NCBI GenBank assembly: GCA_963758525.1
Contig: CAVWVQ010000003.1
Location: 3,904,001-3,968,000, forward strand
Direction of reading: 5' to 3'
DNA from: an uncultured Phycisphaerales bacterium
GTDB lineage: Bacteria; Planctomycetota; Phycisphaerae; Tepidisphaerales; Tepidisphaeraceae
DNA: 64,000 nt
Shown: in pieces, positions 4,527 to 48,444 of the stretch
How the letters are laid out: each line of letters begins with the position of its first letter
Position numbering within the stretch: position 1 is the first letter of the stretch
The notes under the pieces: generated by a model
Databases searched by the model: none
Told to the model about the DNA's origin: nothing
Seen by the model: only the letters and a program-made list of their open reading frames with translations
Translations under genes and position numbers: made by a program

Positions 4527-4707
4527 GCGGGCTGCCCTTCCCGTCTTGCCCCGCTCACGACATAAGAGCAGCGAGGCACGCATCTTTTTCCAAAAATCTT
4601 CGCCATCCGCAATTTCCCTCAAAGCCGGGGCCGGTGGGACCCGTCGTGCATTTGACGTTGCGTGCGGGGGAGCGATCAAGGCCATCTTCCACATACAGCC
4701 TTGATGA

Positions 4708-5839
4708 GTTTCAATCCACGCCCGTGAGGGGCGACTGACTGCTGGGCATCCAGCATCGCCGCTGAAACGCGTTTCGATCCACGCTCCCGTGAGGGAGCGA
4801 CGGGGGCGGTGCTGTTGCCGCTCTCCTTTAGAGCGTTTCAATCCACGCTCCCGTGAGGGAGCGACCAAGGGACACCCCGCCGAAAGACACCACAACAAGT
4901 TTCAATCCACGCTCCCGTGAGGGAGCGACGATGGAGAAGGCAAGCGCCGCGGTCGGGACGTTTCAATCCACGCTCCCGTGAGGGAGCGACTCTCGCCAGT
5001 CGTGTCCGATTTTGCAAACACGATGGTTTCAATCCACGCTCCCGTGAGGGAGCGACATGGTCATAGCCGGTGCGCACATACGTCCAAGATGTTTCAATCC
5101 ACGCTCCCGTGAGGGAGCGACGGGACGCCTATGTAATCGTCGCGTTCGCGAGATGTTTCAATCCACGCTCCCGTGAGGGAGCGACCTACGCTGCAGTGTC
5201 CGGCCTGCGGAGACATCGTGTTTCAATCCACGCTCCCGTGAGGGAGCGACTGGTGCCGGCGGTGCGTATCTCTGCTTCTCCGATGTTTCAATCCACGCTC
5301 CCGTGAGGGAGCGACATGTCCGCAGCCTGTTCAGCATTTGGCTGCTGCGTGTTTCAATCCACGCTCCCGTGAGGGAGCGACATGCGATCTCGCGGCTGAC
5401 GCCCATCTTGACGAGTTTCAATCCACGCTCCCGTGAGGGAGCGACCTCAACGTACTGTATCCGCTTGCTGGACATCGATCGCTGTTTCAATCCACGCTCC
5501 CGTGAGGGAGCGACAATCTGCTTCCTCGGCGACATGCCGTAGCTGGTGTTTCAATCCACGCTCCCGTGAGGGAGCGACCGTTTCAATTCCATGATGGAGC
5601 GGCCGTTTGCACGGTTTCAATCCACGCTCCCGTGAGGGAGCGACCCGCCGCGTTCGCCTCGATTCGCTCGCGTCGCATGTTTCAATCCACGCTCCCGTGA
5701 GGGAGCGACGCTGTCCACCGAAATGCTGATTTGCCAGTCTCCGGTTTCAATCCACGCTCCCGTGAGGGAGCGACCGCTCCGAAGCAGCCACCACGTCTGA
5801 CGTCAAAGGTTTCAATCCACGCTCCCGTGAGGGAGCGAC
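4708..5839 (-). CRISPR. Type I-C CRISPR array: 18 repeats (31 nt), 17 spacers (30-38 nt)
   Basis: Plus-strand repeat GTTTCAATCCACGCTCCCGTGAGGGAGCGAC starts at 4708 (degenerate, 28 nt), 4771 (1 mismatch), 4835, 4899, 4960, 5026, 5091, 5155, 5220, 5285, 5351, 5415, 5484, 5548, 5614, 5679, 5744 and 5809. It has the hairpin CGCTCCC-TCAC-GGGAGCG and an ATTGAAAC 3' end on the minus strand. The degenerate end is distal to cas2. Confidence 0.99.
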
Positions 5840-6026: not shown

Positions 6027-6317
6027 TTAGACGATCAATGGCCCCTGGAGGTCGGTCGATGGTTTGGCCCCGTGATGCTCAACGCGCCGGCGCCAGTTCG
6101 ATCCGAGATAGTAGAAGCGCAGGCTGTCCTCCTTGCCGTTGAAAATATCCAGCAATTGCAATTTCAGCGTCGCCCACTGCGCGGGGTCCACCTGGCACTC
6201 GAAAACAGAGTTCTGCACGCGCTGGCCGAAGTCGAGGCATGTTTTGGCGACGCGAGACAGCCGGCGACGGCCGATGGGAGTCGTGGTGGCGACGTCATAG
6301 GTTACCAATACCATCAT
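6027..6317 (-). CDS. cas2: CRISPR-associated endonuclease Cas2 (type I-C)
   Basis: MMVLVTYDV...[11 protein letters not shown]...DSLRFYYLG. Confidence 0.98.
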
Positions 6318-6336: not shown

Positions 6337-7371
6337 TCATTTCCAGATGAAGGGCGGATACGCGTCCAGGTCGTTCCGCAGGTAGCGGGCCAGCAGCCGG
6401 GCCTGCAGGTGCGGGAGCAGGCCGACGCTCACCTTCTCGCCGAGAAACGGGTGCATCAGCTCCTCCTGCTTCCGTTTTTGATAGGCGACGAGAACCGCCT
6501 TGCGGGTGGCGTCGTTCATCATCACCGCGCCGTTCTCGGCGGTCTGGAATCCGCTGCCGGAAATCTGCCGGCGATTGATGAGCGATAGCGCCAGCCGGTC
6601 GGCGAGAAACGGGCGGAATTCTTCCATCAGGTCCAGCGCGAGCCCGGCCCGGCCGGGGCGATCGCGATGCAGGAATCCCACCTGCGGATCTAGGCCGACG
6701 GTCTGGCAGGCCGACCGCAGATCGTGGCCGAGCATCGCATAGAGGAACGAGAGCAGGGCGTTGACCGCATCAAGCGGGGGCCGGCGGTTTCGCGAACGGA
6801 AGACGAAATCCTCCTTCTGGGCGACGACCAGGTGGTCGAAGACTCCGAAGTAGCAGCTGGCCGAGTCCCCCTCGATTCCGCGGGCCGTGTCGAGCGAAAC
6901 CTCGGAAATGCGGAGTTGCTCGATGCTCTGGGCGAGGTACGCGGCGGCCTTTTCGATCTCGGCTTTGCCAAGGGTCTGCGGATAATCGCGCAGATGCCGC
7001 AGGAGCACCGACCGCGAGTTGGCCACTTTCGCGGCGATCATCGCGCGGGCGATGGCGGCGGATTGGGAATCAGATTCGGAGCGATGGTATTGCTCGCGGC
7101 GGAGCAGCACGTTACCGCTGACAAAGCCGCAGACCTGGGCGAGGAATTTGCCGTGGGAGCTGAGCAGGGAGATGCAGACGTCCCGCTCGCCGCAGAGTCC
7201 CATGAGCGATGGGCTGAGGCCGACCCGGCCGAAGCACACGATCCCGCCGAGCGTATGAATGGGGATGCGGAGTTTGGTTTGCTTCTCGACCCGCACGAGC
7301 AGCGCCTCCCCCTGGCGGGCGAGGTACGCGCCTTCGGTGGTGATGAAGAGGGTGTTGAGGTGCTGCTTCAT
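6337..7371 (-). CDS. cas1: CRISPR-associated endonuclease Cas1 (type I-C)
   Basis: [55 protein letters not shown]. Confidence 0.98.
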
Positions 7372-7452: not shown

Positions 7453-8153
7453 TCAGGGCTCCCATTGCGACCGCGCCGGCCAGCGCCGGTCCAGGTATCG
7501 CGAAGCTCCGCTCATTCCCGGCATGCACAAGCCGATCAGCGAGCAACGCTCGCACTTGCCGCGCTCATAGATCGCCGGCGGCGTGATGCGCGAGGCAATC
7601 AGCGCATGCAGACGCGTGATGGTGTTTTCCGTGAGCTGCCGAAGCGACGCGTCGAATGGCACGTCGAGCCGCCGACGGGTCTTGCCGTAAAAGAGCGCTC
7701 CGGCGGGGATGGAGCAATCCAGCATTTCCTCGAGGCACAGCGCCTTGCGCAAAGCTGGACGCGATCCGCGTCGTGCGGCTTGGGCTTGCCGCGTTTGTAT
7801 TCAATCGGGAACGGGTTTCCCGGCGCGCCGGGACTCGGGGGTTGAGGACTTCCGTCATCCAGCACCGCGCTGTTGGGCACGGGTTGGAAACCCGTGGTAC
7901 GGCGGAATTCGACGACATCGGCTTTGCCGATCAGTCCCCATCGCAGAGAGCGGAGCGGGAGGGAGCGAACGATCCGCACGCCGCCGATGGTGGTGTGCTT
8001 CCCCGAGTCGGCTCGTTCGTGCAGATGCTTGCCATGCACGGTCAGGCTGTTCTCCGCCCACGCCTGCTCGATATGAATGAGCGCGCATTGCCGATCGCAG
8101 TAGATCAGGTGCTGCAATGCGGAGATGGGGAGGAGGTCGGATTCGGGGAACAT
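7453..8153 (-). CDS. cas4: Cas4 (frameshift near 7747, probably an assembly error)
   Basis: ISALQH..YCDRQ and EYKRGK...VQLCA in one frame; ALCLEEML...CERCSL..LCMP in the next. Adding one base restores QLCAQALCLEEM. Confidence 0.92.
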
Positions 8154-8167
8154 TTTTGCACTCGGTG

Positions 8168-10435
8168 CTAAATGACTGCTCCACCCGCGGCGACAAACGC
8201 ATCGGTGCGCAACACGCCAGCCATGATTCCGAGGAACTCAGCATCGTAGTCATCGTCCCATCCATACAATTCCCCGCGCCCAGGGAGAAGGTGTAATCCC
8301 AGCTTTTCGATCTTGGTCGCCCACAGTTGGACGCTTCCGCGCAAGAGCGCACGATAGCCAACCGGTTGAAATTGCATGAGTCGCTTCTTGAGTCGCTTAT
8401 CGACGACCACGAGCCTGGTGTCTGCAACGATGACTCGGCCGTGCTCCTTTACCGACGGATAGTCACGTTCCTTTTCAGCCTTCAACAGTTGGTCTGCCCC
8501 GAGGCCGCCCAGACGTGACAACTCGGTCCGCATCGCCTTCGTGACGATTTCCGCGGGCGTGCCGCCATCAAGCTCTCCGGTGATCAACATTTCGCGAAGC
8601 ACTTCTGCGGAAACCTTAGCCGCGGGATGTTGCGTCACGCCTGCGCCACCGAGAGCGAAGTCGTAGACGATCCCGCCACCGTCGGCGTCGTACTCGCCGT
8701 GGCGGTTTACGCGCCCCCCGACTTGGATGATCGAGGCCGCTGAGAATCGCTCGCGCAGCGCATTTCGGAACGACAGATCGACGCCAGCTTCTACACAGCT
8801 GGTTGCAACCAAGGTCCAATCTTGTTTAGGACTACCCAAACGACTCATCACTCGTCTCAGAATTCGCTCGCGGTCTCGCGGCGTGAGAGCCGTTGACAGG
8901 TGGAGAACATCCAAGTTGGCGTCGCGCATGCTCTTAGCGAGAACAGCGGCGTTCTGTACCGTGTTAACGATAATGAGACGTGGGCCGGGAATATCGCGGA
9001 TATGCCCGACCAGTTGATCGATGTCTACTGTGCGCCCCTCAGCCAGTCGGCTGTATTGGATGCGGTGACGCTCCGCTTTGAGGACATCAGTTGCTTGGTC
9101 GCGTGGCAGCAGTTCCGGCAGCCGCATCGGCTCGGACACAATTTCCGCATTTTCCCAAAATCGCGACAGGGAACCGCTTGCGAATGCGAAGCGGCAACCC
9201 CAGCGCTCGCCCAATTCCCGCATCCATCGCCAGTTCTGCGGCCAGAGCTTTGTGGGCAGCGCTGCGTGTGACTCGTCGATGAATATGGCGCTGCCGGGTA
9301 ACGCGTGCAACTTACGAAGTGATGCCGGATCGCACGCGGATAACGTCTCAAAGAAGCTCACGGCCGTGGTGAGGATGATTGGGGCCTGCCAAAGCACGGC
9401 AAGTTGGCGGTCCTCGTCGGATTCGAAGTCGGCCCGGTGGTGGTGCTCGACAATTACGCGATTCGGGCGTTCACCCCGAAGGACGAGAGCCTGTCTGAGA
9501 CGCTTTGCGGTTTGCGTCAGAATGTTTGTATAGGGGGCGACGATGATCAATCGGCGAAGGGTGGGACGCTCATCGCGCGCTAGACGAATGAGATAGGCGG
9601 CAACCGCAGTGGTCTTACCGAGGCCAACTGGACCCTCGCAGGCGACCATTGGTCCGGCTAATGTCGAATGTAGGCACGCATCGAAGAACGCGGCCCGGCG
9701 GCAATTGCGCGCACGTTCAGCATCGCCATCTCCTGTGGGCAAGCTGCGCGCGTAACTGCAAAGCGCTTCGAGCCGCTCAGCCCATCGGCACTGTGCGGGC
9801 GCGATTGGCGGTCGCCTGTTGTCGAAGAAAGCCGTATCCGTGTGGTCGGCATCAACGAGGCACGACAGCGCGAGCCGCAGCGACAGTCCGTGTATTGGTC
9901 GCCGTTTGGATACGACCTGCCGCCCGAGAACGGCTTCGTGATCGTGAAGGTATTGACTCAGGCGCGCGTTCGTTCTCGCGATCTGTTCGTTGTGCCGAAT
10001 AGGATCAATGTCGTCATGCCGCCTTCCCCGCAATCGGCGCCCGAGCTTGTCAGCATCAAAATGCTCTTGGTTCTGTGGTAATCCGGGAGCGTGGTGACCC
10101 CGGACGAGCCATGCAGCGGCCCAATCTTGCCCGGCGGACAGATGCGCTACCCCGGCGTCGATATGGTCCCATTTTAGCTTGCCGCCCGTCCGACCTTTTC
10201 GAAGCACCTTCTGAATGTCCGGGTCGAGCTTGCCAAGGTCGTGAAAGGTCGTGGCGGCTTCGATCGTCTGCACTAAATCAGAGGGCGGGTCGACCGCATG
10301 CCGGAGAAGCTCTTGAAGTCGATCGCTTGCGCCTCGGCGCACTGCGATAACATGCCGTGAATACGGATCGCCGGGCTCGCCACAGGTAGGTGGTGAGTGA
10401 GCAAGAGGGACGTGAGCGGTCGGCGCAGGCGTCAC
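8168..10435 (-). CDS. cas3: Divergent Cas3 (HD nuclease plus SF2 helicase)
   Basis: AHS, FHDLGK, GHHAPGLP and LVDADHTD HD motifs; GLGKT, DESH, VNTVQNA, VEAGVDLS and GRVNRHG helicase motifs. GTG start overlaps the cas7 stop. Confidence 0.93.
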   Translation of the reverse strand: MTPAPTAHVPLAHSPPTCGEPGDPYSRHVIAVRRGASDRLQELLRHAVDPPSDLVQTIEAATTFHDLGKLDPDIQKVLRKGRTGGKLKWDHIDAGVAHLSAGQDWAAAWLVRGHHAPGLPQNQEHFDADKLGRRLRGRRHDDIDPIRHNEQIARTNARLSQYLHDHEAVLGRQVVSKRRPIHGLSLRLALSCLVDADHTDTAFFDNRRPPIAPAQCRWAERLEALCSYARSLPTGDGDAERARNCRRAAFFDACLHSTLAGPMVACEGPVGLGKTTAVAAYLIRLARDERPTLRRLIIVAPYTNILTQTAKRLRQALVLRGERPNRVIVEHHHRADFESDEDRQLAVLWQAPIILTTAVSFFETLSACDPASLRKLHALPGSAIFIDESHAALPTKLWPQNWRWMRELGERWGCRFAFASGSLSRFWENAEIVSEPMRLPELLPRDQATDVLKAERHRIQYSRLAEGRTVDIDQLVGHIRDIPGPRLIIVNTVQNAAVLAKSMRDANLDVLHLSTALTPRDRERILRRVMSRLGSPKQDWTLVATSCVEAGVDLSFRNALRERFSAASIIQVGGRVNRHGEYDADGGGIVYDFALGGAGVTQHPAAKVSAEVLREMLITGELDGGTPAEIVTKAMRTELSRLGGLGADQLLKAEKERDYPSVKEHGRVIVADTRLVVVDKRLKKRLMQFQPVGYRALLRGSVQLWATKIEKLGLHLLPGRGELYGWDDDYDAEFLGIMAGVLRTDAFVAAGGAVI

Positions 10436-11352
10436 CGATTACTCCATACCTTCGTGGAGAGGTCCTCGAAGTCTGCGAGGCGGTCCCGAAGCTCCTTGGG
10501 TAAGGCGGTTGGGATTTCATAATCCGAAATAGACCTTGACGGGTCGTTGATTGCTCCGTCTGTCCTCGTGGGCGTGAGGGCATCCAAGATTAACGAGTCC
10601 GGACAGGATCCCAGAGCAGATTTGTGCTCCGCGTACCATGCGTGCCGCACCTCGACGAACGGCCGAACCGCGGATGCACTATTGCGGTAGGCGTGGGGTA
10701 TTAGAAATTTCAACAGATCAATGTCATCGGTGGTGCATCCGCTCTTCCTGGCCGTCATTGGGTTGACGAAGAATGGCATTGCATAGACTCCATGGCGCAC
10801 CACGCGCCAACCAAGCGGCGCCATCCCACGATCCTTTCCTTCCTGGACCCCTGATTTGTTGGTGGTCGTCAGTCGCTCGACCTCGATTGGGGAGATACTG
10901 ATGCCCGGTCCGAACTGTACCGCACCCGTGCTGATGAAATGGTCCTTCTCGCCGGGCTTAAAATCTTTGCCCTTAATGTCTTCGAGGAACGTATTACCGA
11001 AAACGCGACCATCCCAGTACGCGCTCATGAATTCGGCAGCGCTCATCTTGAAGATCAAGTCGCGGTTCCTCCCACGGCTTTCCAAAATGCCGTATTTACG
11101 TTTGTCGCCGTTCGACATAAGGGCGAGCTTTTCTTTGGCTTCTACCCAAACCGGCCCTTGGTCGTCCGCGACCATATCGCGAAGTTTCCGCTTATACGAA
11201 ACCGGCGAGATAAGCCCTCTGCCGTCAGCGTCAAGCGTTCGCGGTTCGCTTTCAGCGTCCGGGTCTCCGTTAGGGTTGCTGTGGCGGACCTCGATTACAA
11301 GCAGGCCAGTCCCTCGATTGAGCGCGGCTTTACCATCGTTGATCGATGCCAT
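10432..11352 (-). CDS. cas7: Cas7 (Csd2/Csh2-like), divergent
   Basis: SNPNGDPD..SEPR...ISPVSYKRKLRD, D.RVFG, TGAVQFG, VVRHGVY. Confidence 0.93.
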   Translation of the reverse strand: MASINDGKAALNRGTGLLVIEVRHSNPNGDPDAESEPRTLDADGRGLISPVSYKRKLRDMVADDQGPVWVEAKEKLALMSNGDKRKYGILESRGRNRDLIFKMSAAEFMSAYWDGRVFGNTFLEDIKGKDFKPGEKDHFISTGAVQFGPGISISPIEVERLTTTNKSGVQEGKDRGMAPLGWRVVRHGVYAMPFFVNPMTARKSGCTTDDIDLLKFLIPHAYRNSASAVRPFVEVRHAWYAEHKSALGSCPDSLILDALTPTRTDGAINDPSRSISDYEIPTALPKELRDRLADFEDLSTKVWSNR

Positions 11353-11363
11353 GTTTTTGTCTC

Positions 11364-11831
11364 CTATTCCTTGGGTGGGTTCGATTGTGAGTCTTGGGCC
11401 GAGAGATCCGATTGGGACTTTTGAAGCCCCGCAATATAGCCAAGCAATAATTCTGCCCGAAACAAGTCGTCTACTTTGCAGGTGTTTAATTCGGTACTGA
11501 CTTCATCAGCCAGCGGCTTCATTTCCCGTGCGTGGCGTAAAGCCTTCTTAATTTCCCAGAACCGTTGCTGTTGGTCCTTTTGCTTGCTTCCGTGCAGAGC
11601 TTCGATACGGTCCGGGTCGCGCACCGTCCTCTTCGCCCATCCGTCGTACGGCTTCCACCGTCGGCAAAGCGTAGCCAGCGCTTTCGCCGGTGAGGCCTGA
11701 GCCATGGTGAACACCTGATTACCCAGCAGGGATGGCGGCACGTCGCCGCCCCGTACGTCCGCACAATAACCTGCATGTACGATGTCCGCCGCCGCGAGCA
11801 ACTGGCCGAGTTTAAATGCAATTTGGCTCAT
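11364..11831 (-). CDS. cas11: Putative Cas11 small subunit translated from an internal start in cas8 (155 aa)
   Basis: In-frame ATG 11831 preceded by TAAGGA (11844-11839) with a 7-nt AT-rich spacer (TAAGGAAATATATATG), just before AFKLGQLL. Confidence 0.7.
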   Translation of the reverse strand: MSQIAFKLGQLLAAADIVHAGYCADVRGGDVPPSLLGNQVFTMAQASPAKALATLCRRWKPYDGWAKRTVRDPDRIEALHGSKQKDQQQRFWEIKKALRHAREMKPLADEVSTELNTCKVDDLFRAELLLGYIAGLQKSQSDLSAQDSQSNPPKE

Positions 11832-13547
11832 ATATATTTCCTTATTACGACCCGATTTGGACAATAGCACGCCCAGCATTGTCACAGTTCGAAGAACCTC
11901 GCGGCGGTCGAATTCTTTGGCCGCGTCGAAACTGCGGCGCAAAGCATGAGCCGCTCGTGAACAAAGAATCGTCCTGCGCGCCAAGACCAGACGAAGGACG
12001 CGCGATGTACGACGGCGTGCCGGAAGCGTCTTAGGCTCTGTGCGGTCAAGGAATAGCGATAGGGCCTCCGCCGCAGGCAAACCGATGACGTCCTCCGCCC
12101 GCGTCCCCCCTTCGATGAAAAGCTGTTTGGTAAACGAGATGACGCCGAGCGGCGGCACGTGAGGAGGCGACATTGGCCGCGGTTTGCGCTCGCCTTGGCG
12201 AAGTACCGGGAGCGTGACCCCCGCCGGCACGTTTCTCTCTCCATCTGACCACCTGACGGCCGAGTCGTACAGGTCGCCTACCGGGGATTCGCCGGAATAA
12301 ATAACCTTGCGATTAGCCGGATCAACTCTACGCAACACTGCAAGCCGTACCGGAGTCTTTCGAAAGTCGGCCCCGGCCCTCCCTTGGATCGACTCAAGAA
12401 GTCGCTCGGTGCGTTTTTCAAACGTCGCAATTGAATCGGGTGGGTTGGCCGCAACCAGAGGCTGTGGCTCTTCCGAAGAAAAGTCCTCCTCGTCGTCTGT
12501 AAGCGTCCCTACTATCGGGGCGTCAGGGAGTGATTCGACGAAGGCTAATAATAGGTCGGTTTGCTTCGGGGCTTCGCCGGGGATTGAACGCCACGTTATC
12601 CCCCGACGTTCCGGGCTTGTAAGCGACTCGGCTGCCGCCGCCAGACAACGCGCCAAGTCTTCTCCGACTTGAATCGTGTCGCTTCCAAATCTGCCGTACC
12701 GATCATTAGCGGGAAGTTGGTCGAAGCGGGAGAATAATGACGTTGGGCCGATGATCGGAAGATTGCATCGCGGAAAAATGTCATCAACGAGGTAGACATT
12801 GTCGCCGGTCAGCGCACACCGTGATTTGGTCCTGTCCGGTGGGCCTGCTGAACCGCCCAAGGCCGTGCCGATTAGTGCGAGGATTCCGCGATCGGTGAGA
12901 CTCAGAGGCCATTCGCCGACCGCGTCTATGTAAATCGCCCCCTTTGCTACAAGCAGGGCGGCAGCAAGGTCAATCCAGTCATCCGAGGCCGTTTCGGTCA
13001 GTCCCTTGATAAGGTGAACTCGAACGGCATCCAAAAAACGGGCAGGGTCGCCCCCGTCTCTGGGGTCGCAGGCCCGAAGAAAGCGCTTCAAAGCGGCGGG
13101 GACAACACGAGCTTGCCCCTCTCGCAGGCTGTCAAGCTGCGCCAATCGCTCGCGCAGCCGCCTCATCGTCCCACCGGTCGCCCACTCGCCGAGTTCCTGG
13201 CGGCGTAGACTGGTTTCTGCAGCGAGATTTAACAAAGTAGCGCGCTGTTCATGCCGCTTCGGCCGCTTTGCCGCTTCTGTCCATTCGTCCCACTTCCGAA
13301 TTGCCACATCATCCAAGAGCGGCTTTATCCGAACGAAAGGGAAACTATTCTTGTTGAAGTCCCTGAGTGTCCAAAGCGGCGCTGTTTTAGGCACCGGCGA
13401 ACCCTTGGCTATGTGGCCATCAGGATTCAGGTACACCCGTAAGGTATCAACGCCTCGGGCGGTTGGCGAGATATCTGGATGGCGCTGCTCGATTTCGATG
13501 CCGGCGTCCCGCGCCCCCCGCTCGGCTATGAGGAATTCGTTTAGCAT
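11364..13547 (-). CDS. cas8: Large subunit Cas8-like protein, highly divergent (~727 aa)
   Basis: Lies between cas5 and cas7. It has a CALTG motif, a C-terminal AFKLGQLL...LLLGY segment resembling the Cas8c/Cas11 region, and an internal RBS plus ATG. Confidence 0.75.
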   Translation of the reverse strand: MLNEFLIAERGARDAGIEIEQRHPDISPTARGVDTLRVYLNPDGHIAKGSPVPKTAPLWTLRDFNKNSFPFVRIKPLLDDVAIRKWDEWTEAAKRPKRHEQRATLLNLAAETSLRRQELGEWATGGTMRRLRERLAQLDSLREGQARVVPAALKRFLRACDPRDGGDPARFLDAVRVHLIKGLTETASDDWIDLAAALLVAKGAIYIDAVGEWPLSLTDRGILALIGTALGGSAGPPDRTKSRCALTGDNVYLVDDIFPRCNLPIIGPTSLFSRFDQLPANDRYGRFGSDTIQVGEDLARCLAAAAESLTSPERRGITWRSIPGEAPKQTDLLLAFVESLPDAPIVGTLTDDEEDFSSEEPQPLVAANPPDSIATFEKRTERLLESIQGRAGADFRKTPVRLAVLRRVDPANRKVIYSGESPVGDLYDSAVRWSDGERNVPAGVTLPVLRQGERKPRPMSPPHVPPLGVISFTKQLFIEGGTRAEDVIGLPAAEALSLFLDRTEPKTLPARRRTSRVLRLVLARRTILCSRAAHALRRSFDAAKEFDRREVLRTVTMLGVLLSKSGRNKEIYMSQIAFKLGQLLAAADIVHAGYCADVRGGDVPPSLLGNQVFTMAQASPAKALATLCRRWKPYDGWAKRTVRDPDRIEALHGSKQKDQQQRFWEIKKALRHAREMKPLADEVSTELNTCKVDDLFRAELLLGYIAGLQKSQSDLSAQDSQSNPPKE

Positions 13548-13560
13548 CGGTTTTTCCCTC

Positions 13561-14274
13561 TCAAGCAACGTCGCTTGTCCACTCGGGCGGCAGTTCGTAG
13601 CGGAGAATGCCGGCGTTTACCCTCACTTCTTGACGGTAGTCGGGGTCGTAGCCACCGTTTACTGGACGGTCCCAAATCCCTAGCAACATCGAGGGAATCT
13701 CCAATGATAATGCCGTATCGACTTCCATTAAATCATTGCGGAAGGGACCCCAATACGAGCAAGTAAATTCGCTCCAGCCCATACATGGAGTTCGGAAACA
13801 TTTGCCGCCCTTTACCCGACGATCGAACAGGTCCTTGAGATAGTGGCGGGTGTTGATTCGGCCTGCTTGACGCCGCCCGATGATAGCTCCGTGGACTCGG
13901 TAACACACATTGCTGAGAACGGTAGCAAAAAGTTGCATGCTGCTGCCGCCGGAAGCAAGACCCTTAGTGAGGACGCTCGTTTTCCGCAAAGGGCCACCGT
14001 AATTCGTCGTGAATCGTTGAAATGAAACTCGGCCACCGGGCTCGCCCACCCGGCGGCATACTTCAACCGTTGTTGGGCAAATCCAAGCCGCGCCGTCAGC
14101 AAGAAATGCAATCGCCTCGAACAACCCTTTAGCCGCCGACCAAGTGGGTACGGCGTAACTCGTTGGCGTGCCGCCGGTGTCTGGCCGTGAAAACATGGCC
14201 AACGGGGCAGCAACTTCCAGTTCAACGGGATATCGCGAAACCATGCGTGGCGCGTCGTCACTGGTCGGTTTCAT
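13561..14274 (-). CDS. cas5: Cas5 (Cas5d/I-C-like), divergent (start ATG 14274 or 14244)
   Basis: LEVAAPLAMFSRP...SYAVPTWSAAKGLFEAI, LSNVCYRV, FDRRVKGGKCFRTPCMGWSEF. Confidence 0.88.
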   Translation of the reverse strand: MKPTSDDAPRMVSRYPVELEVAAPLAMFSRPDTGGTPTSYAVPTWSAAKGLFEAIAFLADGAAWICPTTVEVCRRVGEPGGRVSFQRFTTNYGGPLRKTSVLTKGLASGGSSMQLFATVLSNVCYRVHGAIIGRRQAGRINTRHYLKDLFDRRVKGGKCFRTPCMGWSEFTCSYWGPFRNDLMEVDTALSLEIPSMLLGIWDRPVNGGYDPDYRQEVRVNAGILRYELPPEWTSDVA

Positions 14275-14309
14275 GTTATTAGTTCCCAAGTAATGTGCCG
14301 GGACCCGAT

Positions 14310-14545
14310 CGTGCGGCGAATCCCGAAAATTTTGCGAGCGGTTCCGCAAATCGTGCCAGCGACAGTAGCTCGCCCCAGTCGGCGGCGCCGAATGCCGCTG
14401 CGAACGTTCGGGCGAGCCGAGCGACATGGTCGGCGTGCGCCTCAAGCGTTTCCCACTGCGATTGCGGCTCGCCCGGCAGGCTATGCGCGTAAATCGCGCG
14501 CGGCTCGTTCAAACTGTCTGAATCCTGAGTAGCGGCCCGCGACAT
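14310..14545 (-). pseudogene. cas3: Truncated N-terminal remnant of a canonical type I-C cas3 HD domain
   Basis: ATG 14545: ...IYAHSLPGEPQSQWETLEAHADHVARLARTFAAAFGAADWGELL, a frameshift, then WHDLRN..QNF (degenerate HDLGK). No helicase follows; cas5 starts about 40 nt later. The left boundary is approximate. Confidence 0.8.
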
Positions 14546-14690
14546 ATCCCACCTTTTGTTGCAGCGGCGTGTCACCCACGCCGGGGGGATATGGTACGGC
14601 GGATGTTTGGAGTCCAAAAACTATTCGGGAGTTTTCAACAGGGGGCTGGGCCGGAGCGGAGGGGTGGACGGTAGAGAGTCGACTCGACGG

Positions 14691-14796
14691 TGTACTTGTC
14701 CTCGCTTCCCTTTCCGCTTTTAGCCGGCTGGCTCGCGAACCGTGTCCCCACCTGCTGGAAGAGAACGGCTCGCGAGCGAGGCGGCTAAAAGGGGGA
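14691..14796. repeat. ~105-bp palindromic element, copy 1
   Basis: TGTACTTGTCCTCGCTTCCCTTTCCGCTTTTAGCCGGCT...GAAGAGAACGGCTCGCGAGCGAG..GGC.AAAAGGGG, with a near-identical direct copy at 16629-16733. Confidence 0.88.
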
Positions 14797-14853: not shown

Positions 14854-15123
14854 ATGGACAGGGCATTTCGCCGGAACGAGTGGAATCGTGAGCACATCGC
14901 GATTCACGGCGTATTGCCGGAGGAAGCGGAGTTCATCGTCAACCATACCTCACGGCCGTACCCCGAGTTTATTGGCGATGGCAAATGGCGGGTGCGCGGG
15001 CAGACGTTCAGCGGTCGGTATCTGCAGGTGATATTCGTGATCGAGCACGAATGCTATTATGTGATTCATGCGCGGGGCCTGACGGAAAGAGAGCGACGAA
15101 ACTTGCGACGGAGACGCCGATGA
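14854..15123 (+). CDS. BrnT-like (RelE-fold) toxin
   Basis: 89 aa, NEWNREHIAIHGV..EEAE...GQT.SGRYLQVIF...VIHAR.LT.RER. Overlaps the next gene (ATGA). Confidence 0.75.
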   Translation: MDRAFRRNEWNREHIAIHGVLPEEAEFIVNHTSRPYPEFIGDGKWRVRGQTFSGRYLQVIFVIEHECYYVIHARGLTERERRNLRRRRR

Positions 15124-15413
15124 CGAAGAAAAAGAAACGGTGGTCCGAACTGACCGCCGGGGAACTCGCTGCCGCGACGAAGGAATTCGACGATCCGAAT
15201 TATCAACCTGCGGCGGTACGCCCTTCAAAGAAAGACGTTGCCTCGCTTCGGCGTGTACAGCGAAAATCCGTCAGCGATGGCTTTCGCGTCGGAGTCGCGC
15301 TGGAGCAGGCGCTGATCGATCAGGCCGACCAATATGCGCTGGATCATGGAATGACCTTTTCCGATCTGGTTGGTACGGCCCTTCGCCGCCTGATGCGAAA
15401 GCGGTCGGCATAG
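15120..15413 (+). CDS. Cognate antitoxin with a C-terminal ribbon-helix-helix-like domain
   Basis: Coupled to the toxin. C-terminus RVGVALEQALIDQADQYA..HGMTFSDLV..AL is RHH-like. Confidence 0.65.
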   Translation: MTKKKKRWSELTAGELAAATKEFDDPNYQPAAVRPSKKDVASLRRVQRKSVSDGFRVGVALEQALIDQADQYALDHGMTFSDLVGTALRRLMRKRSA

Positions 15414-15440: not shown

Positions 15441-16454
15441 ATGGCCGACATCCGCGTTGCTCGATTGTTGCGGCTCATCACCCTCCTGCGCGCGCGGACC
15501 GCGCCAACTTTGATAGAGTTCGCACGCGAGTTAGAGGTGTCCACGCGGACGATCTACCGCGATCGCAGGGCGCTGGAGCACGCGAACATTCCCTGCCGTT
15601 TCGACAAGGAAATCGGCGGATACCGTCTCGGCGAGGATTTCTTTCTCCCGCCGGTGCAGCTCACGCTCGGCGAGTCGATGGCGCTGTCGGTGCTGGCGTC
15701 GCAGCTTGCCGGGCGAAAGCAGATTCCGTTCCTGGAGGATGCCTGGCGGGCGGTCACGAAGGTGCGGAGCCAGCTTCCGGCGGCGATTCGCGAGGAGCTG
15801 GCGGGGTCCGATGGAAATGTGCGGGTGGAGGGGACGCGGGTTTCGCCACAGAGCGGATGCGAGCCGCATTTTGAGATGTTGCGGCGGGCCATCGCGTCGA
15901 AGCGAAAGGTGCGATGCGCGTACGAGGGAGTGAAGCACGGCAAGGCGGCGTTTTTGTTTTGGCCATACGCGCTATTCTTCTGTCAGCGGGCGTGGTACGT
16001 GATCGGCCATAGCGAGAGTGCCGACGCGGAGCGGTCACTGAAACTCAATCGGCTGAGCAAAGTGGAGCCGACCGAGCGGCCCTTCGCGATCCCGGACGGC
16101 TGGACCCTTGAAAAGAGCTTTGGGAAAGCCTGGCGGATGATGCGCGGCGGCCGGCTGTTCCAGGTTAAAATCCAATTCGACGGCGAGTTCGGTCGCAACG
16201 TCGCGGATACGCTCTGGCATGCCACGCAACGAATCACTTGGGCGGGCGGCGTCTGCCTGTTCGAGTGTGAGGTCGACGGCTTGGATGAGATTATCTGGTG
16301 GGTGCTGGGCTATGGGCATCACGCCCGCGTGCTCGCGCCTCCGGAGCTGGTGGAGCGCGTCGCCAAATCGGCGGAACTGGTGGGGAAGCAATACCGCGGG
16401 CGGGCAGAGGGCCCGCCCAAGAGAAGTCGGGAGAAGGTGCTGGTGCCAAGCTAA
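15441..16454 (+). CDS. YafY/PafB-family HTH-WYL-WCX transcriptional regulator
   Basis: ELEVSTRTIYRD HTH, PYAL...AWYVIG...RSLKLNRL WYL domain, WVLGYG...VLAPPEL WCX domain. GGAGG RBS. Confidence 0.93.
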   Translation: MADIRVARLLRLITLLRARTAPTLIEFARELEVSTRTIYRDRRALEHANIPCRFDKEIGGYRLGEDFFLPPVQLTLGESMALSVLASQLAGRKQIPFLEDAWRAVTKVRSQLPAAIREELAGSDGNVRVEGTRVSPQSGCEPHFEMLRRAIASKRKVRCAYEGVKHGKAAFLFWPYALFFCQRAWYVIGHSESADAERSLKLNRLSKVEPTERPFAIPDGWTLEKSFGKAWRMMRGGRLFQVKIQFDGEFGRNVADTLWHATQRITWAGGVCLFECEVDGLDEIIWWVLGYGHHARVLAPPELVERVAKSAELVGKQYRGRAEGPPKRSREKVLVPS

Positions 16455-16628
16455 GCGGGGGCAATCAAAACTTTACGGAGATGACACGGGAAAGCCATGG
16501 GGGGCATCCAATTGCAGAATGGCATTTCTGCCGTCCAACTCTACGTCCGAAATGGACCGGCGCGCGCCACGACCTTCGAGCCGCCGGGTGCCACCATACT
16601 CAGATGAAACGACCTCCAACCTCTACGA

Positions 16629-16733
16629 TGTACTTGTCCTCGCTTCCCTTTCCGCTTTTAGCCGGCTTGCTTGCGAGCCGTCTTTCCATATTCAGAAGAG
16701 AACGGCTCGCGAGCGAGCCGGCAAAAAGGGGAA
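16629..16733. repeat. ~105-bp palindromic element, copy 2
   Basis: Direct repeat of 14691-14796. Confidence 0.88.
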
Positions 16734-23065: not shown

Positions 23066-23482
23066 ATGAGCCGGATTCTTCTTGCCGTCAGCAGCAACTA
23101 CGCCGCCCAGAAGGTGGTGGACTGCATCGTCGATCTGTCCAAACGGCTGGCGGCGGAAATCCTCGTGGTGCATGTTTCCCGTCCCAGCGGCGGGCAGATG
23201 CGCGAGCAGGAACAGGCCGAAGGGGAATCGGCGATCCGCTATCTGCGGGAAAAACTGGTCACGCGCGGGGTGGCCGTGCAGGACCTGCTTCTTTTCAGCG
23301 ACGATATTGCACGAGCCATTCTGAACACTGCCGTCGAGCGGGAGGCATCCATGATCGTGCTCGGTCTGACCGGGAAAAACGTCTTCGCGCGTCTGCTGGC
23401 GGGGAACGTTCCGGTGGAATTGATTAAGAATACAAAAATTCCGGTGCTGATCCTTCCGCCGGATTGGAATAGGACGATTTGA
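23066..23482 (+). CDS. Universal stress protein
   Basis: ILLAV...VVHV...IVLG..G...LLAGNV...PVLI. Confidence 0.85.
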   Translation: MSRILLAVSSNYAAQKVVDCIVDLSKRLAAEILVVHVSRPSGGQMREQEQAEGESAIRYLREKLVTRGVAVQDLLLFSDDIARAILNTAVEREASMIVLGLTGKNVFARLLAGNVPVELIKNTKIPVLILPPDWNRTI

Positions 23483-23493
23483 GGGGGGAAGGG

Positions 23494-23681
23494 GGCAAGG
23501 CACGAAGGGGGCAAGGCACGAAGGCACGGAGGCACGGAGGGGCCAAGGCACGAAGGCACGAAGGCACGGAGGCACGAAGGGGAGGACGCTGCGCGGCGGA
23601 ATGTTTTGTCAGATTCGCTTCCTCAAACCTGTCGCCTCTCTTCTGCTCCCCTTCCTCACCCTTCGTGCCTTTGTGCCTTTC
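23494..23681. repeat. Octamer tandem repeats (GGCACGAA/GGCACGGA)n with a downstream inverted arm
   Basis: The same family occurs at 44998-45060, 48066-48280 and 52548-52602. Confidence 0.85.
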
Positions 23682-30397: not shown

Positions 30398-30618
30398 GGA
30401 ACCGAGGGTGCAAGCACCCTCGGCGTTCACGGCGAGCACCTCAAGCGAGTCCATCGTCTTCCTCCAGATTTTCCACGGGTGCAAGCACCCTCGGCGTTCA
30501 CGGCGAGCACCTCAAGCGAGTCCATCGTCCTCCTCCAGATTTTCCACGGGTGCAAGCACCCTCGGCGTTCACGGCGAGCACCTCTTCAACGCCGAGGGCT
30601 GCTTGCAGCCTCGGTTCC
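30398..30618. repeat. REP-like palindrome with a 71-bp tandem duplication (2.5 units) and a closing inverted arm
   Basis: GGGTGCAAGCACCCTCGGCGTTCACGGCGAGCACCTC at 30406, 30477 and 30548 with near-identical 34-bp linkers, then AACGCCGAGGGCTGCTTGCAGCCTCGGTTCC inverted. Confidence 0.85.
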
Positions 30619-44952: not shown

Positions 44953-45230
44953 GCCGCCGATTCTAATGGCGCCCCACAAGCGGGGCAAATCCGCGGAAGG
45001 CACGAAGGGGAGAGGAAGGCACGAAGGCACGAAGGCACGAAGGCGCGGAGGCACGAAGGGAAGAGGGGTGGAAAGGGAAGGTTTGAGAAGGGTTGGCACC
45101 TGGAGAGGGGGTAGTAGCGTGCAGAGACGCTCGTGCATCCGGTCCGGTTCGAACTCGCCGACGGTATCGCCGTGGCTTGCCCTTCGCGGAGCGCAAGACA
45201 TCCGCCCACGCAATCCTCCCCGATTTCAGT

Positions 45231-47696: not shown

Positions 47697-48128
47697 TTGC
47701 AATTAAATAATAATGAGACATTTGCCCCCGCTGATTCGGTGCTGGAAATCAGTCTCGAACTGCTTCGCCGCATGGGCGTTCTCGCGCCCATCGGTTCGGG
47801 AGAAACTGACCCGGACGTTCACGAGGGGGACGTCAATCTCGCCCGCGGCAGACAGGAAGCAGAGCAGCGGCTGGCAAAGTCCGTCAACGACGCCCAACGG
47901 TGGCTCGATGAAATACCGCCGGACTTCCTCGCTGAAGAGATCACCCGCCGGGCGGCGAAGCGCGTCAACAGCGCAAAGCTCGAACCAACACCGCGCCGTC
48001 CCCTCGAGCGGCTGCAAACGCGAAGTAGCGTCCGAGCTGTCACTCGTCGCGTTTGGTGCACAACTGAAGGCACGAAGGCACCAAGGCACGGAGGGGAAGG
48101 CACGGAGGCACGGAGGCACGGAGGGTAG
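47697..48128 (+). CDS. Hypothetical protein; its C-terminus runs into octamer repeats
   Basis: Coding-like ORF after an AT-rich upstream region; no family recognised. Confidence 0.35.
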   Translation: MQLNNNETFAPADSVLEISLELLRRMGVLAPIGSGETDPDVHEGDVNLARGRQEAEQRLAKSVNDAQRWLDEIPPDFLAEEITRRAAKRVNSAKLEPTPRRPLERLQTRSSVRAVTRRVWCTTEGTKAPRHGGEGTEARRHGG

Positions 48129-48444
48129 GACGCTGGCGCAACGGAGGTTTGTGGGGCGATCTACTGTCGCGGGCCGCGGTTTCACTATCCTGCAAAACAC
48201 AGAAGCTCGCGGCCTCAGCCGCGTCATTCCCTTCGTGCCTACGTGCCTACGTGCCTTCCCCTTCCTTCCCCTTCGTGCCCTCCTTAAACTCCTGCCCACC
48301 TTTTTCCTTTGGGTTCGGGCCTTTGTTGGCCATTGGGCCTTGGGGCATTCAGCTTTCCTCTGACGCCAGCCGCATTTTTCGTCAGCGACGAAATTCTCTT
48401 CGGAATTCCGGAAAAAGTTCCGGGTCTCGTGCATCTATATTTGC

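Follow-up and report, generated by a model that had tools for sequence, protein, structure and literature searches.

Type I-C CRISPR-Cas loci (clusters of regularly interspaced short palindromic repeats with their associated genes) typically carry their effector genes in the order cas3-cas5-cas8c-cas7. Here, we describe a type I-C operon in a 64,000-nt stretch of DNA from an uncultured Phycisphaerales bacterium (the window), in which a stump of cas3 is followed by effector genes in the order cas5-cas8-cas7-cas3. The operon shares with the canonical I-C systems of D. vulgaris (PDB 8DEX/8DFS) and N. lactamica (8G9T) a Cas5c, the Cas8c fold, a Cas7, an internal Cas11 start (predicted here), an HD-helicase Cas3, a locus without cas6, the cas4-cas1c-cas2 genes, and a hairpin repeat that ends in GAAAC. 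It differs from them in that cas3 comes last in the variant and first in the canonical operon, the variant Cas8 has about 730 residues versus about 580 and is 10–14% identical to its canonical counterparts, the variant Cas5, Cas7, and Cas3 score under the NCBIfam cut-offs, and effector and adaptation modules are uncoupled.

In situ exchange of CRISPR effectors is known in general; we found no published account of a single clade that displaces resident effectors again and again. In Makarova et al. 2025 (PMC12669027), in situ effector shuffling is presented as a general trend that affects an estimated 1–2 per 100 adaptation modules, and their Discussion, Extended Data Fig. 9, and Supplementary Discussion suggest escape from anti-CRISPR (Acr) proteins, illustrated with Cas9. 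As in those exchanges, the effector is replaced here while the adaptation genes and array stay. However, in our case one clade occupies five of the 21 readable I-C loci of the host family, with a graded series of fossils and with stand-alone copies, and term searches in the covered parts of the main text and supplement of that study gave no mention of Cas8c or of a variant with such a gene order. A second parallel, drawn from part of PMC5361080, is the sequential displacement of T6SS (type VI secretion system) effector-immunity modules in V. cholerae, in which an incoming module also displaces a resident in place and leaves remnants, but this is another system, and the homologous anchor proposed there was not detected here. 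For I-C, the covered text of Altae-Tran et al. 2023 (PMC10910872) mentions only a Cas8-Cas5 fusion, and that of a Vibrio survey (PMC6360697) gives the canonical order. Full-text literature searches, outside which most subscription papers lie, returned nothing on this order, on a truncated I-C cas3, or on its displacement, and no paper on the clade, its gene order, or its mobility was found.

The window locus is composed of the following parts (coordinates are positions in the window):

14279..14545, minus strand: stump of the resident canonical cas3; 88-aa open reading frame (ORF), ATG at 14545, stop at 14279
13561..14274, minus strand: divergent Cas5c, 237 aa; predicted endonuclease for CRISPR RNA precursors and subunit of the Cascade effector complex
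11364..13568, minus strand: divergent Cas8c large subunit, 727 aa from the ATG at 13547 or 734 aa from 13568
11364..11831, minus strand: predicted hidden Cas11c small subunit, 155 aa, from an internal ATG (11831) of cas8
10432..11352, minus strand: divergent Cas7 backbone subunit, 306 aa (PF05107, E 5e-52)
8168..10435, minus strand: complete divergent Cas3 (HD nuclease and helicase), 755 aa, last in the module
7453..8153, minus strand: resident cas4, frameshifted near 7746; likely pseudogene
6337..7371, minus strand: resident cas1c (TIGR03640 above cut-off)
6027..6317, minus strand: resident cas2 (PF09827)
4706..5839, minus strand: type I-C CRISPR array with 17 near-identical 31-nt repeats and one degenerate terminal copy
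between 5840 and 6026: array leader

The stop codon of the stump lies 4 nt ahead of the cas5 ATG, and the distance from the end of the module cas3 to the cas4 ATG (8153) is exactly 14 nt. The coordinates and the below-cut-off profile matches thus bear out the earlier description of a divergent cas5, a divergent cas7, and then a complete cas3 placed after cas7, 14 nt before cas4; the HD, Walker A, and DExH motifs of this cas3 are all present. The repeat forms a 7-bp stem-loop (z −3.3), and the array is the sole I-C array in the genome. No cas6 is present in the locus, where the abutting genes leave no room for one (cas6 was not sought genome-wide).

The native effector module was almost certainly displaced in situ at this locus, as indicated by the identity of the stump, the incongruence of Cas1/Cas4 with Cas7/Cas3, the codon offset of the module, and DNA homology to canonical relatives on both flanks. 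The stump is Cas3-like over residues ∼13–60 only (positions 8–54 of the canonical Cas3 profile) and ends just short of the HD catalytic motif. The original prediction of a dead HD fragment of ∼75 codons was therefore right about a dead cas3 stump and wrong about its size, as the ORF has 88 residues, ∼60 codons of which are Cas3-derived, and the HD motif is not reached. The stump is 67–70% identical to canonical Cas3 N-termini from genomes of the same family (L213, L210, and L208 in the numbering of the loci that we compared with the window locus), and it barely matches any of 103 variant Cas3s (best E 0.007). Its DNA is 72% identical to that of L213, and the DNA homology to this canonical locus spans cas2, cas1, cas4, and the stump and is absent over the module. 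The nearest relatives of Cas1, Cas2, and Cas4 are those of L202, which is canonical (78%, 80%, and 73% identity, respectively), and L035, Cas2 being 80–82% identical to these two; Cas4 is of the host lineage in four of five segments, the first 45 residues included. Cas5, Cas7, and Cas3 are only 26–29% identical to canonical members of the host family (28–29% for Cas5 and 26–28% for Cas7 and Cas3), and all three have their closest relatives in other lineages; Cas7 and Cas3 are 66–79% identical to proteins of Acidobacteriota, Binatota, and other planctomycetes. Among variant loci, the Cas1 nearest to that of the window is found in L035 (75%), yet the L035 Cas7 is just 47% identical to the window Cas7, and a tree in which the two Cas7s were forced together was rejected (p 0.012; the pair was picked after the trees were seen).

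The G+C content of third codon positions (GC3) of the four module genes is 0.58–0.65, which among 2,979 long ORFs corresponds to the 1st–7th percentile (the median of the genome is 0.746); it is 0.73 in the stump and 0.76–0.84 in cas4, cas1, and cas2, in agreement with the A/T-richer codon endings that had been noticed by eye in the module. The median codon offset is −0.10 in variant loci (44 of 51 negative) versus −0.03 in canonical loci (25 of 34 negative). That a foreign module displaced the native one and left the adaptation genes and array in place, as originally proposed, agrees with every test run, and the event is not a one-off.

The resident cas1, cas2, and repeat are ordinary I-C components, as had been stated (Cas1 matches TIGR03640 Cas1c with 500 bits; cut-off 385), but cas4, which had been placed with them, is frameshifted. 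A truncated cas4 product is on record for the window assembly alone. A 99%-identical Cas4 encoded on an independent 10.9-kb contig also loses its frame at this site and has a second shift in addition, so the lesion is likely real. In the host family, cas4 is also split by frameshifts or insertions in the canonical loci L204, L206, and L212.

Cas8 had been called unrecognisable. It matches the PADLOC profile PDLC01562 ('Cas8c, CAS-I-C effector_LS') over residues 8–721 with E 3e-124, so this full-length match places it in a family that has already been clustered and labelled I-C, if only by a profile label; searches of Pfam and NCBIfam gave no match. A Foldseek search of the PDB with an AlphaFold2 model built with 37 homologs (predicted local distance difference test score of 86.5) placed Cas8c subunits of D. 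vulgaris and N. lactamica in all of the first nine ranks, at 10–14% identity. Comparison of the Cas8 profile with the Cas8 of 8g9t gave E 0.003, and HHalign against canonical Cas8c gave 96.3%. Among the 120 of 168 matches listed, all Cas8 homologs with a name are called 'hypothetical protein'. Pfam and NCBIfam thus miss the clade, and I-C diversity is therefore undercounted. The internal cas8 ATG (11831) is conserved without exception (46 of 46 loci), and it has a Shine-Dalgarno-like motif in 42 of them, versus 31 of 393 other in-frame ATGs. A hidden-Cas11 signature inside cas8c has been described for I-C (part of 10.1101/2020.04.18.045682), and the window cas8 is likewise predicted to encode an internally started Cas11c.

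The other subunits have more distant matches to curated models. Cas5 matches PADLOC Cas5c (E 4.6e-18) and, below the cut-off, TIGR01876, and the top PDB matches of its profile are all I-C Cas5c. Of the positions that we take to be catalytic in Cas5c, by analogy with B. halodurans Cas5d, the alignment of the window Cas5 retains only a part; they are also variable among solved Cas5c structures. For Cas7, the best NCBIfam match is TIGR02589 (109 bits, under the cut-off of 182) and the best PADLOC match is a profile common to I-B and I-C; the tree does not fix the position of its long-branched clade among I-C and I-B. The module Cas3 matches PADLOC Cas3c (E 1.5e-85), and among variant Cas3s, the HD motif is present in 95 of 99 and Walker A in 94 of 99. 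All three proteins match I-C or generic type I models, each time under the curated NCBIfam cut-off. The PDLC01562 match, the Cas8c-like model, the profile comparison, and the Cas11 signature therefore identify the window effector as a remote type I-C effector and not a new subtype. The earlier suggestion of an undescribed subtype was too strong, given that the subunits are remotely homologous to those of I-C and that an I-C profile library already includes this Cas8 family. Three other assignments were rejected: type I-B (no cas6 in the locus; best I-B Cas8 fold match at E 0.04, far weaker than the I-C matches), type I-G (no Csb2 Cas5/6 fusion or Cas7g match for the module proteins; a genuine I-G locus is present at another site of this genome), and a CRISPR-associated transposon (Cas3 is intact, and no Tns/TniQ family was found among 56 neighbouring ORFs of 10 loci without adjacent adaptation genes).

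Scanning GTDB for Cas7 yielded 43 loci, and more were collected by a metagenome scan (best 80 of 589 matches kept) and by genome searches; 130 loci remained after removal of eight recognised duplicates. All four genes are present in 95 of the 130, always as cas5-cas8-cas7-cas3 (95/95), and the other 35 loci hold subsets in the same order. The search for this architecture that had been recommended returned 95 complete loci. The order cas3-cas5-cas8c-cas7 was seen in the canonical loci compared here and not in the variant loci, and the order of the complete loci therefore marks them as variant, not canonical, I-C. The hosts of the clade belong to eleven phyla. Within the host class it is present in 10 of 401 genomes (an eleventh match is weak), and host-family I-C Cas1 loci with a readable effector comprise five variant and 16 canonical ones, two more being too short.

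Downstream of the module, 51 of the 68 loci with 1.5 kb of sequence run into cas4. Adaptation genes are arranged differently in four loci and missing from 13, of which three are near-identical and two have an array nearby. The cas3-cas4 junction lies within 20 nt of the cas4 profile start in 36 of 66 loci. In L029 and L037, the adaptation genes lie on the upstream side of the variant module, facing away from it, and in L030, L038, and L129 the module lies beside divergent, low-scoring cas4/cas1/cas2 genes (34% identity to the window Cas1) and may join non-I-C adaptation modules. Single I-C-like repeats, often on the opposite strand, are found just upstream of the variant cas5 or in the cas3-cas4 interval (L007:5575, L012:6833, L017:6016, and L018:5360) and are possible regulatory mini-arrays. 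A related small gene stands ahead of cas4 in both variant and canonical loci (L041:12200-12840, L078:3750-4300, and L102; 82% DNA identity between L078 and L102).

Comparison of these loci indicates that displacement by this one I-C effector clade very probably occurred repeatedly and independently. In quick Cas7 and Cas3 trees (LG+G4, long branches flagged), variant Cas7 (46 rows) forms one long-branch clade with a Shimodaira–Hasegawa-like approximate likelihood ratio test (SH-aLRT) value of 100, and variant Cas3 (24 rows) forms another (SH-aLRT 100) beside canonical I-C Cas3; variant and canonical I-C Cas3 group apart from other, I-B-like rows (SH-aLRT 97, midpoint root). The Cas1s of variant loci are dispersed among canonical ones, with 11 changes over 26 variant and 18 canonical rows, and their monophyly was rejected (approximately unbiased test, p 2.4e-5). 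Within the host family, monophyly of the five variant-locus Cas1s versus 17 canonical ones was also rejected (p 7e-79). The gene-tree incongruence that had been anticipated is thus present, with one clade each for Cas7 and Cas3 and scattered Cas1s; Cas1 sister pairs starred in the tree join variant with canonical loci (L193/L202, L191/L215, and L190/L214). Identities of the module genes track one another (rho 0.64–0.79) and not Cas1 (rho −0.03 to 0.12; 36 loci, kin among them not being independent), and they are uncorrelated with Cas4 as well. Canonical modules track Cas1 at rho 0.39–0.52 (24 loci).

Of the 88 loci with at least 300 nt of flank, 22 carry remnants of canonical genes (matches of 20 bits or more on the same strand) upstream of cas5, with varied end points. 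They end at Cas3 profile positions 49–133 in 15 loci and 371–388 in three, comprise the whole cas3 in two (L016 and L160, where it is kept upstream of the cassette), and consist of cas8c/cas7c pieces in two. Downstream of the module, cas7c tails are present in four loci (L014, L027, L130, and L157). No two remnants share more than 62% identity, and the remnants do not follow the module (rho −0.19, 11 loci); several are nearest to the lineage of their Cas1 (the window to L210/L213, L084 to L102, and L197 to L215). L078 and canonical L102 are 70–82% identical in DNA on either side of the module. In roughly half of the remnants, the stop codon of the frame is no more than ∼40 nt from the start of the cas5 profile. 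Short gaps may account for this, and translational coupling of the stumps to cas5 is not claimed.

The cassette is also found without adaptation genes. Five genomes with such copies were checked: three have a separate canonical I-C locus (one cut by a contig end), one has an array only, and one probably represents a locus split by the assembly. A stand-alone cassette beside a canonical locus looks like the state before displacement, and loss of adaptation genes could give the same picture. The neighbours of stand-alone copies include tyrosine integrases (L019), a resolvase-type helix-turn-helix (HTH) gene with a cyclic-oligonucleotide-based anti-phage signalling system (L023), insertion sequence (IS) transposases (L028 and L181), ParAB (L162), and Schlafen/GmrSD genes (L152); other copies lie among ordinary genes. 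The phage set contained one unverified human-gut scaffold with the module, and ARAGORN detected no tRNA insertion sites in 15 loci. Seven loci (L147, L149, L152, L162, L177, L181, and L109) form a subclade without adaptation genes near Schlafen, GmrSD, or ParAB genes; several are from human gut metagenomes, and three are 99% identical in Cas7.

These data are probably best explained by a chimeric I-C operon in which a mobile four-gene cassette repeatedly displaces resident effector modules and keeps the guides and adaptation genes. The cassette (cas5-cas8-cas7-cas3) comes from a distant I-C clade, and its products are predicted to assemble into a Cascade-Cas3 that destroys DNA with the existing guides of the host. 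It would start from the situation seen in the gene content of stand-alone copies, which lack adaptation genes, often lie by integrases, IS elements, or defence genes, and sometimes occur in genomes that still hold a full canonical I-C locus elsewhere. There, it would use host I-C arrays in trans: Cas5c would cut the repeat hairpin, and Cas8c, Cas7, and internally translated Cas11 would form Cascade on a TTC protospacer-adjacent motif (PAM) and recruit the Cas3 of the cassette. The cassette would then land in a resident operon at variable points, and deletions on either side would remove the resident effector genes, usually as far as the cas3 start region and cas4; the end states of this step are those seen in the remnants, and the order of events is what we infer. 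The cas3 start region would be retained for expression, presumably with the promoter (a sigma-70 scan of the locus found no consensus site). The swap would persist because it alters nearly all of the surfaces bound by Acr proteins (PAM loop and wedge of Cas8, and Cas7) and leaves the spacers and the acquisition machinery usable. A wider proposal, which we put forward only tentatively, is that this distinct clade, a candidate for a named variant, acts as a serial 'effector refresh' cassette that moves without adaptation genes, uses host arrays in trans, and in at least eleven phyla has taken over canonical I-C operons many times because AcrICs do not see it although it works with the same repeats and PAM; the cas3-last order would let it drop in as a self-sufficient unit ahead of cas4.

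Known AcrICs bind PAM-proximal surfaces of Cas8 and Cas7 and vary in the I-C Cascade that they block; AcrIC4, IC8, and IC9 target Cas8/Cas7 and often show specificity for the host Cascade (part of 10.1101/2023.08.05.552134). The Cas8/Cas7 regions bound by known AcrICs are strongly diverged in the variant. Anti-CRISPR escape as the main driver of the swap is a plausible prediction from this divergence, to which we give slightly less than even credence. Such escape has lacked a clean test case as a driver of effector swaps; one donor clade with many matched pairs (same family or genus, close Cas1, same repeat type, but a canonical effector in one and a variant effector in the other) makes it directly testable, and cultured strains hold both states (Oleisolibacter albus with locus L022, displaced; Azospirillum himalayense, cassette and canonical locus). 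If the compact four-gene Cascade-Cas3 is truly orthogonal to known AcrICs, it could serve genome editing.

The resident acquisition genes and arrays are kept, and the cassette must therefore accept the resident PAM to be useful. One spacer of the variant locus L022 shares 32 of 35 nt with Ralstonia phage RSY1, where TTC lies directly upstream of the matched site. This is the sole protospacer found, as four further arrays gave none in phages and a plasmid search gave repeats only. It is rather likely that the cassette is compatible with a TTC PAM. The predicted PAM loop is mostly R-D-G-Q-H in the variants (47 of about 100 homologs), and the variant wedge lacks the canonical Gln-Ser-Ser-Gly.

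Several observations weigh against displacement by a mobile, TTC-compatible cassette. No remnant is present in 66 of the 88 loci, and the correlation between remnants and Cas1 is not significant (rho 0.21, p 0.17, n = 11 remnants). The codon offset is not decisive, as the ranges overlap and two canonical loci reach −0.19 and −0.24. The TTC protospacer belongs to one trailer-side (old) spacer, which may have been acquired before the swap; the residues predicted for the PAM loop and wedge are unlike the canonical ones, and the window loop is without the glycine kept by most relatives. The window copy may be decaying, its cas4 being broken. A mobile vehicle was not found, with no match in plasmids and none in a scan of IMG/VR for close relatives. 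No conserved junction or recombination site was seen by eye among the junctions listed (no motif-finding was run), and the cas4 5′ end is not detectably donor-like (partial rho 0.12, p 0.09, 35 loci; one middle segment gave p 0.03, uncorrected, among 11 tests), so the aiming of the cassette at I-C loci is unexplained.

The targeting would be explained if a complete variant-locus donor anchored homologously in cas4/cas1 and was joined illegitimately at its 5′ side, a route that bears on how and not whether displacement occurred. It would also account for the tight cas3-cas4 junction (36/66 within 20 nt) and the variable 5′ breakpoints, and its precedent is the homology-facilitated illegitimate recombination proposed for V. 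cholerae T6SS effector displacement (part of PMC5361080). However, the window Cas4 is host-like from its first 45 residues, the 35 loci give no significant donor signal, cas7c tails lie between cassette and cas4 in four loci, and canonical cas7-cas4 gaps are comparably short, and we consider this route somewhat unlikely.

Another possibility is refilling: the resident effectors decayed first, for example because they were costly or self-targeting, and the cassette later restored a locus that was already empty and gave no advantage against anti-CRISPRs. This would fit L074, in which a canonical module broken by internal deletions lies upstream of the cassette, and the broken cas4 of the window and of canonical L204, L206, and L212. 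Prior decay is nevertheless unlikely in view of the three genomes with the cassette and an apparently intact canonical locus (one cut by a contig end), the whole cas3 kept upstream in L016 and L160, and the window spacers, which have no match beyond 18 nt in their own genome outside the array. Among 683 spacers, matches to cas genes or self were of chance length only.

The cassette could instead spread by changing or widening the PAM and thus recapture phages that had escaped by PAM mutation. The predicted PAM-loop and wedge positions do differ from canonical ones; however, the resident Cas4-Cas1-Cas2 and arrays are kept, hence new and old spacers carry the resident PAM, and the sole protospacer found has TTC. 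A PAM change, which had been offered as one motive for the swap, is for these reasons disfavoured and in our view improbable. An old I-C lineage with cas3 after cas7 and whole-locus inheritance, in which the upstream HD piece is incidental, would agree with the fixed order (95/95 complete loci), with the 51/68 loci that lead into cas4 like a normal operon, and with the existing I-C profile for Cas8, but it is largely refuted and highly improbable given the rejected Cas1 monophyly, the uncorrelated module and Cas1 identities, and canonical remnants on both sides with varied breakpoints.

The genome of the displaced locus contains a second CRISPR system, of type I-G (L228, G000:C3:1788900-1799400), with 42 repeats and a Cas4/Cas1 fusion that seems internally shortened (308 aa versus a 546-position model). 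Directly upstream of the window cas operon, on the opposite strand, lie a BrnT-like toxin gene, whose Pfam match (E 0.002) is below the cut-off, and a small partner resembling ribbon-helix-helix proteins (14854-15413, plus strand), which are likely a toxin-antitoxin pair. An HTH-WYL-WCX regulator adjoins the locus (15441-16454, plus strand); a 42% identical homolog lies upstream of the canonical locus L211, and the PADLOC model PDLC01766 is a fusion of such a WYL protein with Cas3c. A 68-nt direct repeat with 88% identity (14683-14750 and 16621-16688) brackets the toxin-antitoxin and WYL genes. Elsewhere in the window, clusters of 8-nt tandem repeats occupy intergenic positions 23472-23607, 44991-45094, and 48051-48144, and a 71-nt triple repeat is located at 30406-30618.

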